Of a stretch of DNA of 34,480 bases, positions 26,677-34,347 are shown one piece after another. Source of the DNA: Bacteroidales bacterium (lineage in GTDB: Bacteria; Bacteroidota; Bacteroidia; Bacteroidales; PUMT01); assembly GCA_007132365.1 (NCBI GenBank), contig SLOS01000374.1, positions 1 to 34,480 on the forward strand, given 5' to 3'. The notes under the pieces were generated by a model that was not told the origin of the DNA, made no database searches, and worked only from the letters and a program-made list of their open reading frames with translations. The first letter of the stretch is position 1; each line of letters opens with the position of its first letter. The position numbers were made by a program, and so were the translations under genes.

Positions 26677-27861
26677 CTAAATGTATTCTGTTATTACCTC
26701 TTTCAAAAATTTTTCCTCCAGTTTCCGACCGATCCGTTTAAGTACGGTTCGCCTTATCTCCAGCTCAACGGGCAGGTTAGGATCCTGGTGGGCTATATTG
26801 ATCTTTGTGCCTATAACTATCCTTATCTCATCGCTTTCAAGGAGAAGTTTAACGATCTGATCAGCTGGTCCTTTGCCTAATGCGTAATTATGGGTGTATT
26901 CATTGAGTATTTTTGATACCTTGCTGAGCGTCAGAATGCCCTCGGTTACAAGGTCAACACCTTCCATATATGACATGGGCGGAAGATCGGGATCATGAAA
27001 TTCGAAAGTGTCTGTTATCTTCAGATCCAGTTCCCTTGCGACTATATCGCCTGTAGTGCCTCCGGACAAAATCTTTTTTCCCGGAAAATCATTTACAATG
27101 GATGCAAGTCTGGCATCATTTTCATCTTCAAACGGGGGCCCGCTGCAGAGAAGGAGTTTTCTGGGTTCCCTGAAGTAAAGGACGGCGCAGGAGGTGTCAT
27201 CCTGGGCGTTGTAATTGTCATTCCTGAAGGCTGCGTTAAGTATTCTTGACGCAAGCTTTTGCGCTGATATGTGAGGCTGCTGATCAATGATCTCCCTTAC
27301 GAAATCCTGCACATTATCCCATCCCCATCCGAAGGGATATTTTCTTGATCCCATCCCGGACTGGGTTATGCCGTCTGAACAGAATATTATCCTGTCTTCC
27401 TTGCGGGGGCGGAAGTGACAGCTTTTTATCTCTTTACCTTTGTTCTGTTCTGAACTTAAAATAAGGCAGTTCCATTCGGCCTCGAGCGGACTGCTGCCGC
27501 GCATGAGGAATGTGCCGGGGTTATCATATTCCAGTATGCTGGTTCTGGCGTTCATGTCAATATCGACGGCAGTAAATGTGGAGTAACTGATCTTGCGGAC
27601 ACTGCAGACAGGGAGGGTGTTCATTATTATTTCTGCAATGCGGGTTACATCCTTGTGCTCACGGGTAAAATTCAATGCCATTGATGCTGTAAGGGTTGCC
27701 AGGATATTGGCTTTCACACCATGCCCCATTCCGTCGGAAAGAACTGCCACAATTCTGTTCTCTTCCTTGATTCTGCGGGACAGGAATACATCGCCGCAGA
27801 TCCTCTCTTTTCCGTGGTTTTTTTGCTGATAACCAACTTCGACATAGAAACTATTCTCCAT
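26677..27861 (-). CDS. SpoIIE/PP2C-family Ser/Thr protein phosphatase with an uncharacterised C-terminal domain of about 150 aa
   Basis: The PP2C core is ERICGDVFLSRR...VAVLSDGMGHGVKANILATL...IIFCSDGITQSG...DDTSCAVLYF. The preferred start MENSFYVEVGY at 27861 overlaps the hydS-like stop by 11 nt. The ORF track's 27897 start would overlap it by 47 nt. Confidence 0.82.
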   Translation of the reverse strand: MENSFYVEVGYQQKNHGKERICGDVFLSRRIKEENRIVAVLSDGMGHGVKANILATLTASMALNFTREHKDVTRIAEIIMNTLPVCSVRKISYSTFTAVDIDMNARTSILEYDNPGTFLMRGSSPLEAEWNCLILSSEQNKGKEIKSCHFRPRKEDRIIFCSDGITQSGMGSRKYPFGWGWDNVQDFVREIIDQQPHISAQKLASRILNAAFRNDNYNAQDDTSCAVLYFREPRKLLLCSGPPFEDENDARLASIVNDFPGKKILSGGTTGDIVARELDLKITDTFEFHDPDLPPMSYMEGVDLVTEGILTLSKVSKILNEYTHNYALGKGPADQIVKLLLESDEIRIVIGTKINIAHQDPNLPVELEIRRTVLKRIGRKLEEKFLKEVITEYI

Positions 27862-29722
27862 CTTCCCCGGGTTTTTCAGGCATTTTGTAAGATTCAATGA
27901 TACTGTTCAGCATAGCCTCTGTTTCCGAAGCGCCTTCCCCGAGAAGGAAACCTATCTGCTGAACCAGGCCCAGATTCTTGTCAATTACATCTGTCACTCT
28001 TTTTATTACCTCCTCTTTTCGCACCTCTGGAACGTAAAGGTCTCTTATAACGGCACCTACAACCTTGTTTTTCCGGATGGTGAATATTGAGACATTATAG
28101 AGGATTTCATTAAAATGTACATCGCGGTTAATAATATTATCGTCATGGCTGAGAACGTATGAAAACAGATTATGGAAGTTGTAGGGCAGCAGTGTTTTAA
28201 GGTCGGCACCCTCCAGCCCGGGAATAACATCCTCTATCATTTTCACCTCTTCGTCCAGAATATTGATAAAGCTTTTATTAGCCTGAATTACCTTAAGGTC
28301 ACTATCCACCAGCACCACGCTGGAGGGGAGCTTCTCAAGCATCGTGCGGGTTGTTTCAAAGGATTCTCTTGCAAGTTGCTGGTCACGCCTTGCATTTTTC
28401 TCCGACTTTTTAAGTGCTGCCTGTGTCTCGGCCAGTTTCTGGTTTGTCTCCCTGAGTGTTTTTATATAGTCATGACGGTTTTTAAGTGTGAAGGTAAGGC
28501 ACATCTCTGTCTTGGCGAGTCCCCGCGCCACTGCAACGGCAAAATCCCGGCAGGAAGGGTATCCGCAGGATGCGCAACCTATTTCGTCAACATTATGTTC
28601 TTTCCCGATCATCTGCAGTATTTCCTGTATCTTCTCCTCATCGGGGTATGGAAGGCGCTGGTCATCTTTTCTGAATTTTCTTGAGAGGTCAAGGGTGCTG
28701 AATTCATCCATCTCTTTCTCCCATGCCCTGAGGTTGAAATCCGCCAGCCTTTTTTTTGCATAAGCTATAACCAGGGCGTGACGAAGATATTTTTCCCCGC
28801 CCCTTGAAGTCCCCGGGCCCATTATACATCCTTCATTATAGAAAAGATTGAAATGCTTTTTTATTGAGTCTATATTTTTTTCAAACTGCCTGACAGCTTC
28901 CAGCATATTATTCCTGCCCTCTGCAGTGATAACCCTACCTGTAAGGAGGTGCTGGTCAATATCCGAAGCTTCCAGTATCCCCGTGCTTACAGGGTAAAGG
29001 GAGCCCTTATATCCTATTGGAGGATCAAAATCGGAAAACTCTACTTTCTTTTCAGTTATGTTGTATTCTGTAAAAAGCTCCCTCAGCTCTGTGAATGTCA
29101 GTACCGAGTCAACTCTGCCATCATCCCTCTGTTTTTTGCCCTCTTTTTTGGTTTCAATGCAGGGGCCGATATAAACGACCTTTACATCTTTACCGTATTT
29201 TTTTCTTACCACTTTTGCTGTTGCTGTCATTGGAGAAACTACAGGGGCAAGATTATCAGTAAGCTCGGGATGAAATTTTTCAATAAAAGAAACGACCGAG
29301 GGACAATTTGCAGTGATATAATATTTCCCTTTGAAATCTGCAAACAGGTCCTTGTATTTACGGGCCACAAGGTCAACTCCGAAGGATGCTTCAAGGACAT
29401 ATTCGAAACCGAGTGCCCTTATCATTTCCACAAACTTCCTGTAGTCGGTAATGTCATGAAACTCTCCTGAAATACTTGGTCCGCAAACTGCAGCAACTTT
29501 ATATTCCGACCTCAGCAGCTCTTTGGTCTCCTCTTTTGAATCCTGATAGCTGATGGCACCGGGAGAGCAGACTTTCAAACAGTGACCGCAACCTATACAT
29601 GCATTATGCATCACTTCCGGATAGTCCATATGTGCCTCTACCTTAATTGCATTTACCGGGCAGATCCTTACACAGGAATAGGAAAGGTTGCATTTGTTGT
29701 TGTCTATGTTTATAAGGGCCAT
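27851..29722 (-). CDS. putative sensory [FeFe]-hydrogenase-like protein (HydS/HfsB-like): ferredoxin domain, H-cluster-type domain, Cx2Cx4Cx16C motif, coiled coil and PAS
   Basis: N-terminal motifs are CNLSYSCVRICP and CIGCGHCLKVCSP. The hydrogenase large-subunit fold shows variant motifs ITANCPSVV (canonical TSCCPxW), IGPCIETKKE (canonical MPCxxKxxE) and NEGCIMGPG (canonical GCxxGG). These are followed by CASCGYPSCRDFAVAVARGLAKTEMC and a C-terminal PAS (LPSSVVLVDSDLKVIQANKSF...GAVIRDL). Confidence 0.8.
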   Translation of the reverse strand: MALINIDNNKCNLSYSCVRICPVNAIKVEAHMDYPEVMHNACIGCGHCLKVCSPGAISYQDSKEETKELLRSEYKVAAVCGPSISGEFHDITDYRKFVEMIRALGFEYVLEASFGVDLVARKYKDLFADFKGKYYITANCPSVVSFIEKFHPELTDNLAPVVSPMTATAKVVRKKYGKDVKVVYIGPCIETKKEGKKQRDDGRVDSVLTFTELRELFTEYNITEKKVEFSDFDPPIGYKGSLYPVSTGILEASDIDQHLLTGRVITAEGRNNMLEAVRQFEKNIDSIKKHFNLFYNEGCIMGPGTSRGGEKYLRHALVIAYAKKRLADFNLRAWEKEMDEFSTLDLSRKFRKDDQRLPYPDEEKIQEILQMIGKEHNVDEIGCASCGYPSCRDFAVAVARGLAKTEMCLTFTLKNRHDYIKTLRETNQKLAETQAALKKSEKNARRDQQLARESFETTRTMLEKLPSSVVLVDSDLKVIQANKSFINILDEEVKMIEDVIPGLEGADLKTLLPYNFHNLFSYVLSHDDNIINRDVHFNEILYNVSIFTIRKNKVVGAVIRDLYVPEVRKEEVIKRVTDVIDKNLGLVQQIGFLLGEGASETEAMLNSIIESYKMPEKPGEDGE

Positions 29723-29726
29723 TTTT

Positions 29727-29978
29727 TTATGTTATGTTCAAGGTTCGGTTAAGTAAATCCACTATATCTTCCGGTTTAACTCCCTCGTATATTTTATCTC
29801 CTATTTTCAGTATGGGGCCTTTATCACATTTGTCAAAACAACGACTCCCGTGAAAGAAAAACCTTTCCTCAAGGTGGTTGTCTTTTAGAAATTTTTCGAT
29901 GATTCCCATGCATAGCCTGTTGCCTCTTGAGAAGCATGAGCTGCCGAGGCAGATTACTATTTCCTGTTTATCATCCAT
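29727..29978 (-). CDS. thioredoxin-like [2Fe-2S] ferredoxin (83 aa)
   Basis: The Cys pattern is C10-x4-C15-x31-C47-x3-C51 (ICLGSSCF...GSRCFDKCDKGP), the NuoE/HydC-type arrangement. Its stop lies 4 nt before the hydS-like start. Confidence 0.75.
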   Translation of the reverse strand: MDDKQEIVICLGSSCFSRGNRLCMGIIEKFLKDNHLEERFFFHGSRCFDKCDKGPILKIGDKIYEGVKPEDIVDLLNRTLNIT

Positions 29979-30175: not shown

Positions 30176-30640
30176 ATGGATGATCAAACTTCTGTAATAC
30201 TCTCCAGGTATCCCAGGGGGCATCGTGATTGCCTCATTCCCATATTGCAGGACATTCAGGAAGAGTACGGTTATCTATCCGAGTCCTCCGTCATTGAAGT
30301 CGCCCGGTACCTTGGTTTGCCATCAAGTAAGATATTCGGACTGGCAACTTTCTATAATCAGTTTCGTTTTGAGCCCAGGGGGCGTTTTCATATCCGTCTT
30401 TGTCACGGAACATCTTGCCATGTAACTGCTGCATCAGAGATCATTAAGGAACTTGGAAAAAAACTCAGGATAGGTCCCGGGGAGATTTCAAGGGATGGAA
30501 TGTTCAGCCTGGAGCTTGTTGCATGCATGGGAGCATGCCATTTGGCCCCCCTTATGCAGGTTAACGATAATTACCACACCAGACTTGATCCCGCCGGTAT
30601 CAGGGATATAATAGATTCATATATAGAAGGGGAGGAATAA
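30176..30640 (+). CDS. hydC: NuoE-like [2Fe-2S] subunit of an NAD(P)H-linked [FeFe]-hydrogenase (HydC/HndA type)
   Basis: It has LIPILQDIQEEYGYL and the Cys pattern RLCHGTSCHV...ACMGACHLAP (Cx4Cx35Cx3C). Confidence 0.9.
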   Translation: MDDQTSVILSRYPRGHRDCLIPILQDIQEEYGYLSESSVIEVARYLGLPSSKIFGLATFYNQFRFEPRGRFHIRLCHGTSCHVTAASEIIKELGKKLRIGPGEISRDGMFSLELVACMGACHLAPLMQVNDNYHTRLDPAGIRDIIDSYIEGEE

Positions 30641-30642
30641 TT

Positions 30643-32595
30643 ATGTCTTTAAACACTCATATACCTGTTGATAAGGAGTACCTTGTAAACAATGTCCTTT
30701 TGAATGAATCTGCAGATCTTCCGGCCGATGTTGAAAAACTGCTTAAGCTTGTACGCCGGGAAAAAGTGAAATATCCGGTTATTTTTGTCGGAACCGGAAG
30801 TTGCGGACTCATTTCCGGTGCAGGAGAGACTCTTATTGAAATAAACAAGTATTTGTCTGACAGGGATTTAAGAGCCGATGTGGTCGAGACCGGATGTACC
30901 GGTTATTGCTCTATGGAGCCGGTGATTGAAGTCCAGTTACCCGGTAAAACCAGGGTCTCATTTAAAAATGTCACCTCAGAAAAACTTCCTTTTGTTCTTG
31001 ACGGCATGTTTAACAGTATGGTTCCCGTGGAGCATGTGCTGGGACAGTATAAAAGTCCCTCGCTTGAATTGTGGAAGGATGTTCCCTTTATAGGTGAGCT
31101 TTCTTTTTTCTCAATGCAATACAGGAACCTGATGAAAAACTGGGGCCGTATCAATCCCCTCTCCATAGAAGAATACATAGCAACAGGCGGATACAGGTCT
31201 TACATAAAAACTATAAGGAATTATACACATGAGGAGGTTTGCGATATAGTTGAGAAAAGCGGTCTTCAGGGCAGGGGTGGAGGAGGCTTCCTTACGGGGA
31301 AGAAATGGAAGGTTGCCCATACCGTTATGGCTGACCAGCGCTACCTGCTTTGCAATGCTGATGAGAGTGATCCCGGAGGTTTTGCCAACAGGGCGATGAT
31401 TGAGAGTGATCCGCATCGTCTCCTGGAGGGTGTGATCATTGCGGCATATGCAATAGGGACTTCAAAGGCATATATATACATACGCAACGATTACAGGAAC
31501 GCAATAGAAAGACTGGAAAAAGCAGTTGACAGGGCCAGGGATTACGGTCTTCTGGGGCACGACGTATACGGCAGCGGGTTTAACATTGACGTAATTATCA
31601 GAAAAGGCCCCGGTGCGTTTGTCTGCGGAGAAGAGACGGCCATGATAAGCAGTATTGAGGGCAAACGCGGCATGCCAAGGCCCAAACCACCCTATCCGGC
31701 CGTTTCCGGGCTGTTTGGCAAGCCTACGGTTGTAAATAATGTAGAGACCCTGTCAAATATTCCTGCAATCTTTGAAAACGGCCCGGACTGGTTCATGTCC
31801 CTGGGCAATGAGACATCTCCCGGTACCAAGATGCTTGTTTTATCAGGAAAGGTAAATAACCAGGGAATAATTGAGGTACCTATGGGTACCAGTGTAAAAG
31901 ATCTGATTTTTGGAGCGGGAGGAGGAATTCCCGGAAAAAAAAGTTTCAGGGCCGTCCAGATAGGAGGTCCTTCCGGCGGATTCATTACAGCCGATAACAT
32001 TGATATTCCCTATGACTTTGATTCCCTTGCATCAGAAGGTGTCTATATGGGCTCGGGTGTCATGGTAGTACTTGACCAGGATTGCTGCATAATAGATACA
32101 GTAAAATATTTTATGGATTTTATTCAGAAGGAGAGCTGCGGCAAATGCATCCCCTGCCGGGAAGGTACACGCCGCATGCTGGAAGTTTATGAAAATATTA
32201 CAAAACGGCCGGTAGATGAAAACGGCCATACCACGCTTGAACGGTTCAAGGGGGTGATGCAGCTTGAAAGTCTTGCCAGTGTGATAAAAGATACCTCTTT
32301 ATGCGGACTCGGACAGAAAGCTCCCAATCCCGTTATAAGTTCACTGAAATATTTTCGCAGTGAATATGAGGAGCATATATTTGACAGGAAATGCAGTGCT
32401 GGTGTATGCAAGGAGCTGAGGTTATTTTATATTGACGTGGAAAAGTGTACCGGTTGTACGGCCTGTGCACCAAAATGCCCCGAGTCAGCAATAATAGGTA
32501 CAAAGCATCACCCGTTTTTTATTGTTGAAGAGAAATGTACGGGTTGTGGTATATGTTATGATGTTTGTAAATTCAGTGCCATCCTGGTAAAATAG
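30643..32595 (+). CDS. hydB: NuoF-like flavoprotein subunit (HydB/HndC type) with an N-terminal thioredoxin-like domain and a C-terminal 2x[4Fe-4S] ferredoxin domain
   Basis: It has GTGSCGLISGAG...GCTGYCSMEP, the FMN site GLQGRGGGGFLTGKKW, CNADESDPG and the N3-type cluster ESCGKCIPCREG. The C-terminus carries CTGCTACAPKCP and CTGCGICYDVC. The start is 2 nt after the hydC stop. Confidence 0.92.
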   Translation: MSLNTHIPVDKEYLVNNVLLNESADLPADVEKLLKLVRREKVKYPVIFVGTGSCGLISGAGETLIEINKYLSDRDLRADVVETGCTGYCSMEPVIEVQLPGKTRVSFKNVTSEKLPFVLDGMFNSMVPVEHVLGQYKSPSLELWKDVPFIGELSFFSMQYRNLMKNWGRINPLSIEEYIATGGYRSYIKTIRNYTHEEVCDIVEKSGLQGRGGGGFLTGKKWKVAHTVMADQRYLLCNADESDPGGFANRAMIESDPHRLLEGVIIAAYAIGTSKAYIYIRNDYRNAIERLEKAVDRARDYGLLGHDVYGSGFNIDVIIRKGPGAFVCGEETAMISSIEGKRGMPRPKPPYPAVSGLFGKPTVVNNVETLSNIPAIFENGPDWFMSLGNETSPGTKMLVLSGKVNNQGIIEVPMGTSVKDLIFGAGGGIPGKKSFRAVQIGGPSGGFITADNIDIPYDFDSLASEGVYMGSGVMVVLDQDCCIIDTVKYFMDFIQKESCGKCIPCREGTRRMLEVYENITKRPVDENGHTTLERFKGVMQLESLASVIKDTSLCGLGQKAPNPVISSLKYFRSEYEEHIFDRKCSAGVCKELRLFYIDVEKCTGCTACAPKCPESAIIGTKHHPFFIVEEKCTGCGICYDVCKFSAILVK

Positions 32596-32622
32596 TTCTG
32601 GTAGCTTTAAATAACCGAAAAG

Positions 32623-34347
32623 ATGATAGTAAGGATAGAGGTTAACAATAAAATCATTAAAGCGCGAAAGGGAGAGACCATAATGTCCGCCCTCAGGTCA
32701 GCCGGTATAATGATCCCCTCCATATGCTCAATGAAGGATTTCACTCCTACCGGAGCCTGCAGGATGTGTGTGGTCGAAGTGGAAGGCAGGCAGGGGCTGG
32801 TACCTTCATGTTCACAGCCTGTCAGTGAATGGATGAAGATAAAAACCCATTCTCCCAGGGTAGTGAAATCGAGAAAAACAATAGTAGAACTGCTTTTATC
32901 CAATCATCCCGATGATTGCCTTTACTGTGAACGCAATGGCAACTGTGAACTGCAGACACTTGCCGAAGAGCTGAATGTGAGGGAGCGGCGCATCATGGGT
33001 AAAAAAAACAAATACAAACTTGACCACTCCAGTCCCTCGATTGTCCGCGATCCCGCCAAATGCATACTTTGCGGACGGTGCGTGCGTGTATGTGAAGAGA
33101 GGCTGTCGGTATTTGCAATTGATTTTGTCAACCGGGGAAACAGGACAATAATAGGAACAGCATTTAACAAGGATCTTAACTTTTCAAGTTGTATCAATTG
33201 CGGACAATGCATAATGGTTTGTCCCACCGGAGCCTTATTTGAGAAAGACAGTCTCCCCGAGATCGAAGATGCACTCAATAATCCTGAAAAAACTGTAGTT
33301 GTTCAATACGCACCTTCAGTAGGTGTTACCCTGGCTGAGGAGTTTGGAATCAAGCCCGGGAAGGATATCGGCGGACTGGTAATTGCGGCCCTCAGGAAGA
33401 TAGGGTTTGACCGGATATTTGATACCTCCTTTGCTGCCGATATAGCCGTTGTTGAGATGGCACATGAACTGCTGTCCTTGAAGGGCAAAAAAGACAGAAT
33501 GCCGCTTATTTCAGGCAGCTGTCCCGCCTGGGTGAAGTTTGCAGAACAGTGGTATCCCGATCTTTTGCCGGCTGTGTCATCATGCAAATCACCGCAGCAG
33601 ATGCTGGGAGCAATTCTAAAATCCGGGTATCCCGGGATATCCGGTACAGATGCCGGCAGTATCTTTTCCGTGGCAGTGGCACCCTGCACCGCAAAAAAGT
33701 TTGAGGCACAGAGAGAAGAGATGACCAAAAAGGGACTATCTGATATAGATGCCGTACTTACCACCAGGGAGCTGGCCAAGCTTATAAAACTTTACGGTAT
33801 TGATATGAGCCAGATCGAACCTGAAGTTGCTGATGAGCCATACGGAATGCGTAGTTCGGCCGGCAAATTGTTTGGTGCATCGGGCGGAATGGCTGAAGCC
33901 ATTATTCGCTCCCTGCCATATGCTGCCGGAGCAAAAGAGCCTTCCCGGATAAAATATCAGGAGCTAAGGGGAGGCAGGGGAAGAAAAGAGGCGGAGATAA
34001 GGATTGGTAAAACCACATACCGGTTTGCTGTTGCAGGTGGTATGTCAAATGCGGTTAATCTTATTGAGGATATCCGGGCAGGAAACTGTGAATACGATTT
34101 CGTAGAGATAATGGCCTGCGCCGGCGGATGTGTCAATGGTGGCGGCCAGCCTATAGGTGCTGATGATAATGCAATAAGGGCAAGGATGAAGGCTCTCCAT
34201 GGTATTGATGAAAAGGAAACAATAAGGGTTGCCCATAAAAATCCCAGGATCAGTGAGTTATATGATAATTTTCTTGGCAGTCCCCTAAGCGGAAAATGCA
34301 AATCACTGTTACATACCAGTTATTCGGAAAGAAAAGTTTTATTATAA
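32623..34347 (+). CDS. hydA: [FeFe]-hydrogenase large subunit, M3 (CpI-like) architecture, 574 aa, with non-canonical proton-pathway residues
   Basis: Accessory clusters are intact: a [2Fe-2S] (C35, C46, C49, C63), an HxxxCxxCx5C cluster (HPDDCLYCERNGNC) and two [4Fe-4S] clusters (CILCGRCVRVC, CINCGQCIMVCP). H-cluster motifs read ISGSCPAWV, APCTAKKFE and FVEIMACAGGCVNGGGQP. Confidence 0.9.
   Translation: MIVRIEVNNKIIKARKGETIMSALRSAGIMIPSICSMKDFTPTGACRMCVVEVEGRQGLVPSCSQPVSEWMKIKTHSPRVVKSRKTIVELLLSNHPDDCLYCERNGNCELQTLAEELNVRERRIMGKKNKYKLDHSSPSIVRDPAKCILCGRCVRVCEERLSVFAIDFVNRGNRTIIGTAFNKDLNFSSCINCGQCIMVCPTGALFEKDSLPEIEDALNNPEKTVVVQYAPSVGVTLAEEFGIKPGKDIGGLVIAALRKIGFDRIFDTSFAADIAVVEMAHELLSLKGKKDRMPLISGSCPAWVKFAEQWYPDLLPAVSSCKSPQQMLGAILKSGYPGISGTDAGSIFSVAVAPCTAKKFEAQREEMTKKGLSDIDAVLTTRELAKLIKLYGIDMSQIEPEVADEPYGMRSSAGKLFGASGGMAEAIIRSLPYAAGAKEPSRIKYQELRGGRGRKEAEIRIGKTTYRFAVAGGMSNAVNLIEDIRAGNCEYDFVEIMACAGGCVNGGGQPIGADDNAIRARMKALHGIDEKETIRVAHKNPRISELYDNFLGSPLSGKCKSLLHTSYSERKVLL

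Follow-up and report, generated by a model that had tools for sequence, protein, structure and literature searches.

The window analysed here is a stretch of 34,480 nucleotides from a soda-lake Bacteroidales genome (contig SLOS01000374.1, positions 1 to 34,480; assembly GCA_007132365.1). It encodes on its minus strand a 623-residue HydS-like protein, related to the group C (M2f-type) regulators built on the H-domain of [FeFe]-hydrogenases. One of the four Cys ligands of the H-cluster is missing in this protein. Our alignments place Asn296 in the vacated column, and many related proteins carry Asn, or more rarely Asp, at the same position. We propose that this replacement is lineage-wide and maintained by selection, and that the cubane of the H-cluster may be kept on the three remaining Cys residues, a joint reading for which the chances appear evenly balanced.

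The column of the missing ligand

The HydS-like sequence was aligned with its 120 best homologues, collected from 5.8 billion proteins (121 sequences in all). The family of the HydA protein encoded in the same window (574 residues), whose motifs lie at CpI numbers C300, C355, K358, M497, C499 and C503, served as the canonical reference. In the P1 motif, TANCPSV, both the letters and the profile-profile alignment agree with the original prediction, made from the sequence alone, that Asn replaces the proton-relay Cys and that the neighbouring ligand, Cys140, is kept; the latter is invariant in 121 of 121 sequences. The P2 motif (GPCIETKKE) provides Cys188, and P3, FNLFYNEGCIMGPG, carries Tyr295, Asn296 and the bridging Cys299. 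No Cys is present between residues 188 and 299, and no profile alignment placed a Cys at the C499-equivalent position.

The original prediction considered Tyr295 as the replacement of the fourth ligand. The absence of the Cys stands, but the column was wrong. Position 295 is occupied by Tyr (108 sequences) or Phe (13 sequences), with or without a Cys at the next position, so that it is not the Cys column, whereas residue 296 is Cys in 78 sequences, Asn in 40 and Asp in 3. Close homologues read FYCEGC in 78 of 120 cases, with a Cys at -3 from the bridging Cys, and the family motif, HFN-x-[FY]-[YF]-C-E-G-C-x-M-G-P-G, similarly has its first Cys three, not four, residues ahead of the bridging one. 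Relatives with the canonical spacing were also found (LFYCDGGC, in loci L033, L045, L047 and L052). They place a one-residue indel between the two P3 Cys residues, and therefore Tyr295 corresponds to CpI A498 and Phe294 to M497. On the evidence of these alignments, the residue in the lost-ligand column is Asn296, not Tyr295. The TAT codon of Tyr295 is indeed found at 28838-28840, one transition away from TGT as had been pointed out, but this is irrelevant, as conversion of the AAT codon of Asn296 to TGT needs two changes.

The register proposed by hhalign, with Tyr295 on C499 and no gap between the Cys residues, was rejected in view of the family's Cys at position 296 and of the Y-C-D-G-G-C relatives; neither register gives the query a Cys at the C499 position. 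HMMER comparisons with Protein Data Bank (PDB) sequences, using the single sequence or the family profile, gave local alignments that end near residue 255, short of P3.

The profile-profile alignment revealed other replacements around the site. Relative to CpI numbering, these are C299 to N139, E279 to Y123, E282 to L126, S319 to A159, M353 to G186, F417 to Y243 and M497 to F294. The equivalents of E279, E282 and S319 are thus absent as predicted. In keeping with the suggestion that loss of the proton pathway fits a sensor, these replacements are typical of the group, and only approximately 17% of sensory sequences keep the relay Cys (PMC10055695). The P2 motif had been read correctly, including the change of Met to Gly, but the difference from the canonical motif is larger, with Thr191 at the K358 position and the invariant Lys192 at that of K359. 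The shift of the Lys of MPCxxKxxE by one residue (C-x-x-x-K-x-E; Thr191-Lys192, 29147-29152, minus strand) is found throughout the close family. Lys192 is invariant even in the members devoid of ligand Cys residues described below, and its conservation is therefore no evidence of CN- binding.

Conservation of the Asn/Asp state and fate of the cluster

We characterized the distribution of ligand patterns in a clade set of 180 full-length members and in a set of 53 related genomic loci, all from metagenome-assembled genomes (MAGs) of Bacteroidota. In the clade set, the pattern CCCC is found in 106 proteins, CCNC in 57 and CCDC in 5, with more degenerate patterns in the other 12. The Asp-bearing relatives are P0054, P0077, P0093, L023 and L031. 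When 1.8 billion cluster representatives were searched exhaustively, 62 more distant ones were obtained (26-36% identity), all of which have kept the Cys, and Cys is therefore the ancestral state.

In the 43 Asn/Asp-type proteins of the homologue alignment, and in every Asn/Asp locus, Cys140, Cys188 and Cys299 are 100% conserved. These proteins span identities down to approximately 53%, with synonymous codon changes at the three Cys positions. In the query clade, the H-domain shows a nonsynonymous divergence (dN) of 0.094 against a synonymous divergence (dS) that is saturated (>1.5), similar to the other domains; with such saturation the dN/dS values are only rough, which calls for caution in the reading proposed here. 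By this comparison the H-domain is under purifying selection and is not simply decaying.

A sequencing or assembly error had been envisaged, and a pseudogene would be a related explanation. All that speaks for either is the oddity of the feature itself. The same Asn recurs in the 57 related full-length proteins, which come from many independent assemblies, and in no fewer than 18 independent MAG loci. Across the 53 loci it is encoded by AAT or AAC (GAT for Asp), while the other three ligand Cys residues are encoded by both TGT and TGC. Reversion to a Cys codon would take the two changes mentioned above, the reading frame of 623 codons is intact, and dN remains below 0.1 against saturated dS. 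We consider an error or a pseudogene to be practically out of the question.

Another residue might act as the fourth ligand, namely Cys80, whose recruitment had been suggested initially, or the phenolate of Tyr295. The only Cys residues in the protein are at positions 11, 17, 21, 42, 45, 48, 52, 80, 140, 188, 299, 383, 386, 391 and 408. Cys80 is more frequent in Asn/Asp-type proteins (30 of 43) than in four-Cys proteins (5 of 78), and Tyr295 adjoins the vacated position. However, Cys80 is absent from 13 of the 43 Asn/Asp-type proteins; it is replaced by Val in P0030-P0037, L018-L020, L031 and L044, none of which has Cys296, and it is present in H-domains that have no ligand Cys at all (L035, L037 and L053) as well as in the few four-Cys proteins. 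It aligns with CpI position 229, which adjoins the A230-P231-S232 loop, on the [2Fe] side. Four-Cys proteins conserve Tyr or Phe at position 295 just as well, and a Phe is unable to ligate. Finally, a covariation scan identified no column with a potential ligand residue that covaries with residue 296. Cys80 is thus not supported as a conserved substitute ligand by the alignments, and ligation by either residue seems very unlikely.

The related loci form a series with respect to the ligands. Four Cys residues are present for instance in L012-L016, L021 and L027, and three Cys with Asn or Asp in the query clade, L017-L020, L023, L031, L042 and L044. Only the C300 equivalent is left in L024-L026, L028 and L034 (NCP / GPV / FYTE--F), and no ligand Cys in L030, L032 and L040 (NDP / GP[VL] / FY[NT]E--Y) or in L035, L037, L053 and P0122 (YDP or NDP / GP[ED] / YGN). 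The C300 equivalent is the last ligand lost in this natural series. Cys-free H-domains are also found in P0128, P0163, P0230, P0232 and P0250. All classes retain the N-terminal cluster Cys residues, the C-terminal Cx2Cx4Cx16C motif and a neighbouring gene for a phosphatase of the PP2C family, and most also have a small [2Fe-2S] protein gene and hydCBA; the PAS domain is retained even in the Cys-free proteins. Residues G73, P54, K27, M273 and P35 are common to the Asn/Asp and degenerate groups and rare in four-Cys proteins, which suggests that the degenerate groups descend from an Asn/Asp-type ancestor. In a bootstrapped neighbour-joining tree, individual clades are supported at 88-100% but the backbone at <50%, and the number of independent Cys losses therefore cannot be stated.

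This series raises the possibility that, in the query too, the H-domain is a pseudo-hydrogenase scaffold whose cluster site is already empty. Signalling would then rely only on the Fe-S clusters at the two termini and on the PAS domain, and the three Cys residues would have a structural or other role. In sister lineages left with a single ligand Cys or none, the protein is still complete and still linked with the PP2C gene and hydABC; K192, P82 and G302-P303-G304 are conserved even there, and the K358 position is not Lys. The earlier suggestion of a degenerate pseudo-hydrogenase thus fits sister lineages that have lost three or four ligands. It does not sit well with the query lineage, in which the other three Cys residues are invariant and purifying selection appears strong. 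The restriction of residue 296 to Asn or Asp argues for a specific role beside a cluster. In CrHydA1, moreover, where C366 is the bridging Cys and C362, four residues ahead of it, corresponds to CpI C499, C362 is dispensable for stable incorporation of the [4Fe-4S] cluster (Kertess et al. 2017, PMC5855289). We regard an empty site as unlikely in the query lineage.

Our preferred reading is that the H-site cubane is kept on Cys140, Cys188 and Cys299, as suggested by the limitation of residue 296 to Asn or Asp together with the invariance of the other three ligands. A side-chain oxygen of Asn/Asp, or a water or hydroxide positioned by that residue, would be found at the fourth iron. The cluster potential would be raised as in the engineered C362D variant of CrHydA1: C362D and C362S take up [2Fe], their activities are <2.5%, and they are biased towards H2 uptake, with a more positive potential (PMC5855289). 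That the query would also have its [2Fe] subsite installed is more doubtful, and seems to us somewhat less likely than not. A still more specific proposal, which we put forward as speculative, is that a site-differentiated cubane with three Cys ligands and an Asn/Asp oxygen, still linked to [2Fe], could make a high-potential sensor biased towards H2 oxidation. It would represent the first step towards a redox regulator free of the H-cluster, with loss of C499 first, of C355 and C503 next, and of C300 at the end. That C300 comes last agrees with the finding that its counterpart C115 is the one Cys essential for the CrHydA1 cubane (PMC5855289). Under the preferred reading itself, the query would stand at the beginning of a natural series freeing the family from the H-cluster. 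The redox or H2 signal might be relayed by the Fe-S chain to the C-terminal cluster and on to the PAS domain, and the latter might modulate the PP2C phosphatase, which would control the adjacent hydABC genes or the enzyme itself.

Several points weigh against our preferred reading. To our knowledge, Asn is not an established Fe-S ligand. The [2Fe] pocket departs from the canonical one, with Thr191 taking the place of K358 and Gly or Asp that of A230, and as Lys192 is kept in Cys-free members, conservation within the pocket is no proof of cofactor binding. The Cys-free relatives have the same operon, so that a regulatory role can apparently be fulfilled without an H-cluster, and only signature residues suggest a single origin of the Asn/Asp state. 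In CrHydA1, the variants at C362 were D, S and A, with Asn not among them, and C362A, which offers no ligand at this position, did not accept [2Fe] (PMC5855289).

Several of these points also count against a third possibility, namely that the query has a complete functional H-cluster, cubane and [2Fe], whose potential is tuned by Asn296. The protein would then truly sense H2, either at an altered threshold or with a unidirectional, H2-oxidizing response. Uptake of [2Fe] by C362D and C362S, with a bias to H2 uptake, is in line with it, as is the conservation of Cys299, of P82 and S83 (equivalent to P231 and S232), of S163 and P164 (S323 and P324) and of the TmHydS-like G186 and Y243. Maturases can be inferred in an organism whose adjacent HydA has all four ligands. 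In contrast, Asn is neutral and was not represented in the CrHydA1 series, in which C362A did not bind [2Fe], the K358 Lys is displaced and the A230 position changed, and the lineage later loses the whole site. A fully functional H-cluster therefore looks improbable to us.

Domain architecture and gene neighbourhood

A Pfam search with the HydS-like protein showed two Fer4 domains, followed by Fe_hyd_lg_C, the Cx2Cx4Cx16C motif and a weak match to a PAS domain. The coordinates of these features and of the neighbouring genes are collected in Table 1.

Table 1. Features of the HydS-like gene and of its neighbourhood in the window
Feature	Coordinates	Strand	Basis
HydS-like gene (group C / M2f-type [FeFe]-hydrogenase-like regulator)	27851..29722	-	Open reading frame; Pfam; best structure matches of the AlphaFold2 model
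N-terminal ferredoxin-like domain, residues 4-60	29543..29713	-	Pfam Fer4, sequence
H-domain, residues 75-303	28814..29500	-	Pfam PF02906, E=1.4e-41, profile positions 2-245 of 245
Cys80, aligned to CpI position 229	29483..29485	-	Alignment
P1 TANCPSV: Asn139 (CpI proton-relay Cys299), Cys140 (ligand, C300)	29303..29308	-	Profile-profile alignment
P2 GPCIETKKE: Cys188 (ligand, C355), Thr191 (K358 position), invariant Lys192 (K359 position)	29147..29161	-	Profile-profile alignment
Tyr295, TAT; corresponds to CpI A498	28838..28840	-	Homologue alignment
Asn296, AAT; in the column of the lost ligand (equivalent to C499)	28835..28837	-	Homologue alignment
Cys299, TGT; bridging ligand (C503)	28826..28828	-	Profile-profile alignment
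C383-x2-C386-x4-C391-x16-C408, accessory [4Fe-4S] site motif of M2e/M2f	28499..28576	-	PF04060 match
PAS-like domain, residues ~458-562	28037..28351	-	Weak PAS_8 match; secondary structure of the AlphaFold2 model
PP2C/SpoIIE-family Ser/Thr phosphatase gene, directly downstream, overlapping the HydS-like 3' end	26677..27897	-	Open reading frame, Pfam, synteny
Small thioredoxin-like [2Fe-2S] protein gene (83 residues, NuoE C-terminal type), directly upstream of the HydS-like gene	29727..29978	-	Domain matches, synteny
Divergent hydC (NuoE-like), hydB (NuoF-like) and hydA; trimeric group A [FeFe]-hydrogenase	30176..34347	+	Domain matches, synteny

The second N-terminal cluster motif, C42-x2-C45-x2-C48-x3-C52, is complete, and the first one, C11-x2-S14-x2-C17-x3-C21-P, has Ser14 in place of its second Cys (residues 11-21, C-N-L-S-Y-S-C-V-R-I-C-P; 29660-29692, minus strand). 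This position is occupied by Ser, Asn or Thr in most close relatives, and the Cys is kept in deeper lineages. The distal accessory cluster, with three Cys ligands, could be a [3Fe-4S] cluster or be ligated by Ser. On the C-terminal side, C383, C386, C391 and C408 are invariant, with a spacing of exactly Cx2Cx4Cx16C, a motif described for the M2e/M2f sensory subclasses (PMC8163306). The PAS_8 match is weak (residues 458-502, E=0.0028, 18.0 bits, under the 21.8-bit cut-off of Pfam). In an AlphaFold2 model built on 49 family sequences, residues 468-561 form two strands, helices and three strands, a PAS-like arrangement. The mean predicted local distance difference test score of this model is 80, with values of at least 80 in every 10-residue block of the H-domain, and its best PDB matches are [FeFe]-hydrogenases (HydA, CpI and DdH, E ~1e-21).

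The initial assignment as a HydS-like sensor is supported by the domain order, the adjacent PP2C phosphatase gene and hydCBA. Going by its gene arrangement, the protein fits group C3 of HydDB, a class of 'phosphatase-linked (putative)' [FeFe]-hydrogenases (PMC5037454). Judged from its sequence, it is a variant of group C (M2f) HydS and not a plain member, because the defining set of four Cys ligands is incomplete.

The PP2C/SpoIIE gene is syntenic in approximately 48 of the 53 related loci. If the listed TTG start is used, its first 47 nucleotides lie within the end of the HydS-like gene, which suggests translational coupling. Its product has a C-terminal extension of approximately 150 residues (residues ~250-406) without any Pfam or NCBIfam match. 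No gene for a partner kinase was found within the window. The 83-residue protein encoded upstream is a counterpart of the C-terminal [2Fe-2S] half of NuoE/HydC. Its gene is syntenic in most related loci, and it is possibly a dedicated redox partner of the HydS-like regulator.

The trimeric HydABC hydrogenase is the likely regulatory target of the HydS-like protein. HydA (32623-34347, plus strand) matches CpI in length and numbering and has kept all four ligand Cys residues. Its proton pathway is non-canonical, with SGSCPAW as P1 motif (Ser299 instead of Cys), Met279 instead of Glu279 and Ala353 instead of Met353; in HydA orthologues of related loci, residue 299 is Cys, Ser, Asp or Asn.

The loci closest to that of the query come from soda-lake sediments (L001, 95% identity; L051, 99% over the final 184 residues). 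One soda-lake MAG, CSSed165cm_559, harbours two contigs, L007 and L051, with versions of the gene 87% and 99% identical to that of the query, probably a result of strain mixing in the bin rather than of paralogy.

Significance and comparison with known systems

Whether HydS-type proteins sense H2 through their H-cluster is an unsettled question in the field, and the only characterized members, TmHydS and TamHydS, both have the complete ligand set. The family described here represents a natural allelic series in one conserved operon context, with four Cys, three Cys and Asn/Asp, one Cys or none, so that the question can be put to a direct test. Should hydABC still be regulated by the Asn/Asp and Cys-free forms, H2 binding at the H-cluster could not be the signal. 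For hydrogenase chemistry, they would provide natural scaffolds with a non-thiolate cubane ligand, a feature that shifts potential and catalytic bias in the laboratory. For annotation, the label '[FeFe] hydrogenase group C' in metagenomes covers proteins unable to bind the cofactor. We found no description in the open-access literature of natural HydS or other sensory hydrogenases devoid of one or all cubane ligand Cys residues, which does not prove their novelty.

Among known systems, HydS of Thermotoga maritima, a putative sensory [FeFe]-hydrogenase (group C, M2f), is close to the query. TmHydS has the same domain order, with two N-terminal Fe-S motifs (the first one lacking a Cys in the query), an H-domain, the Cx2Cx4Cx16C motif and a PAS domain (PAS-like in the query). 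Like the query, it lacks the relay Cys, E279, E282 and S319, and it is genetically associated with a group A hydrogenase. Its residues at the C299, M353 and F417 positions are A131, G177 and Y223 (identities as published, not from direct alignment; PMC10055695), the latter two matching G186 and Y243 of the query. Unlike the query, TmHydS has all four ligand Cys residues and a spectroscopically verified H-cluster. The query differs from it by Asn at the C499 position, Thr at that of K358 and Phe rather than Ser at that of M497, by P3 Cys residues that lie one position closer together in its family, and by the presence of seven of the eight N-terminal Cys residues.

The C362D, C362S and C362A variants of CrHydA1 share with the query lineage a non-thiolate residue at the same ligand position, and the Asp-bearing relatives are the natural counterparts of C362D. 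They differ in that the former were engineered in the laboratory from a catalytic group A enzyme, whereas the natural proteins have many more changes in the pocket.

HfsB/HydS proteins of Thermoanaerobacterium saccharolyticum and Ruminococcus albus have been genetically implicated in the regulation of fermentation and hydrogenase genes (PMC5707799). Like the query, with its PAS-like domain, they are PAS-containing hydrogenase-like proteins encoded together with Ser/Thr signalling proteins. However, these systems are found in Firmicutes and include a kinase partner, and no kinase gene is present in the query window. The members of HydDB group C3 similarly consist of a sensory-type H-domain protein encoded beside a Ser/Thr phosphatase; that class, in contrast, was defined for presumed H-cluster binders. 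Eukaryotic Nar1/NARFL may be a parallel case, in which the scaffold of a hydrogenase H-domain has been turned to a non-catalytic function that does not involve [2Fe], but it has kept its cluster Cys residues, serves cytosolic Fe-S protein assembly and has neither a PAS domain nor a phosphatase partner.

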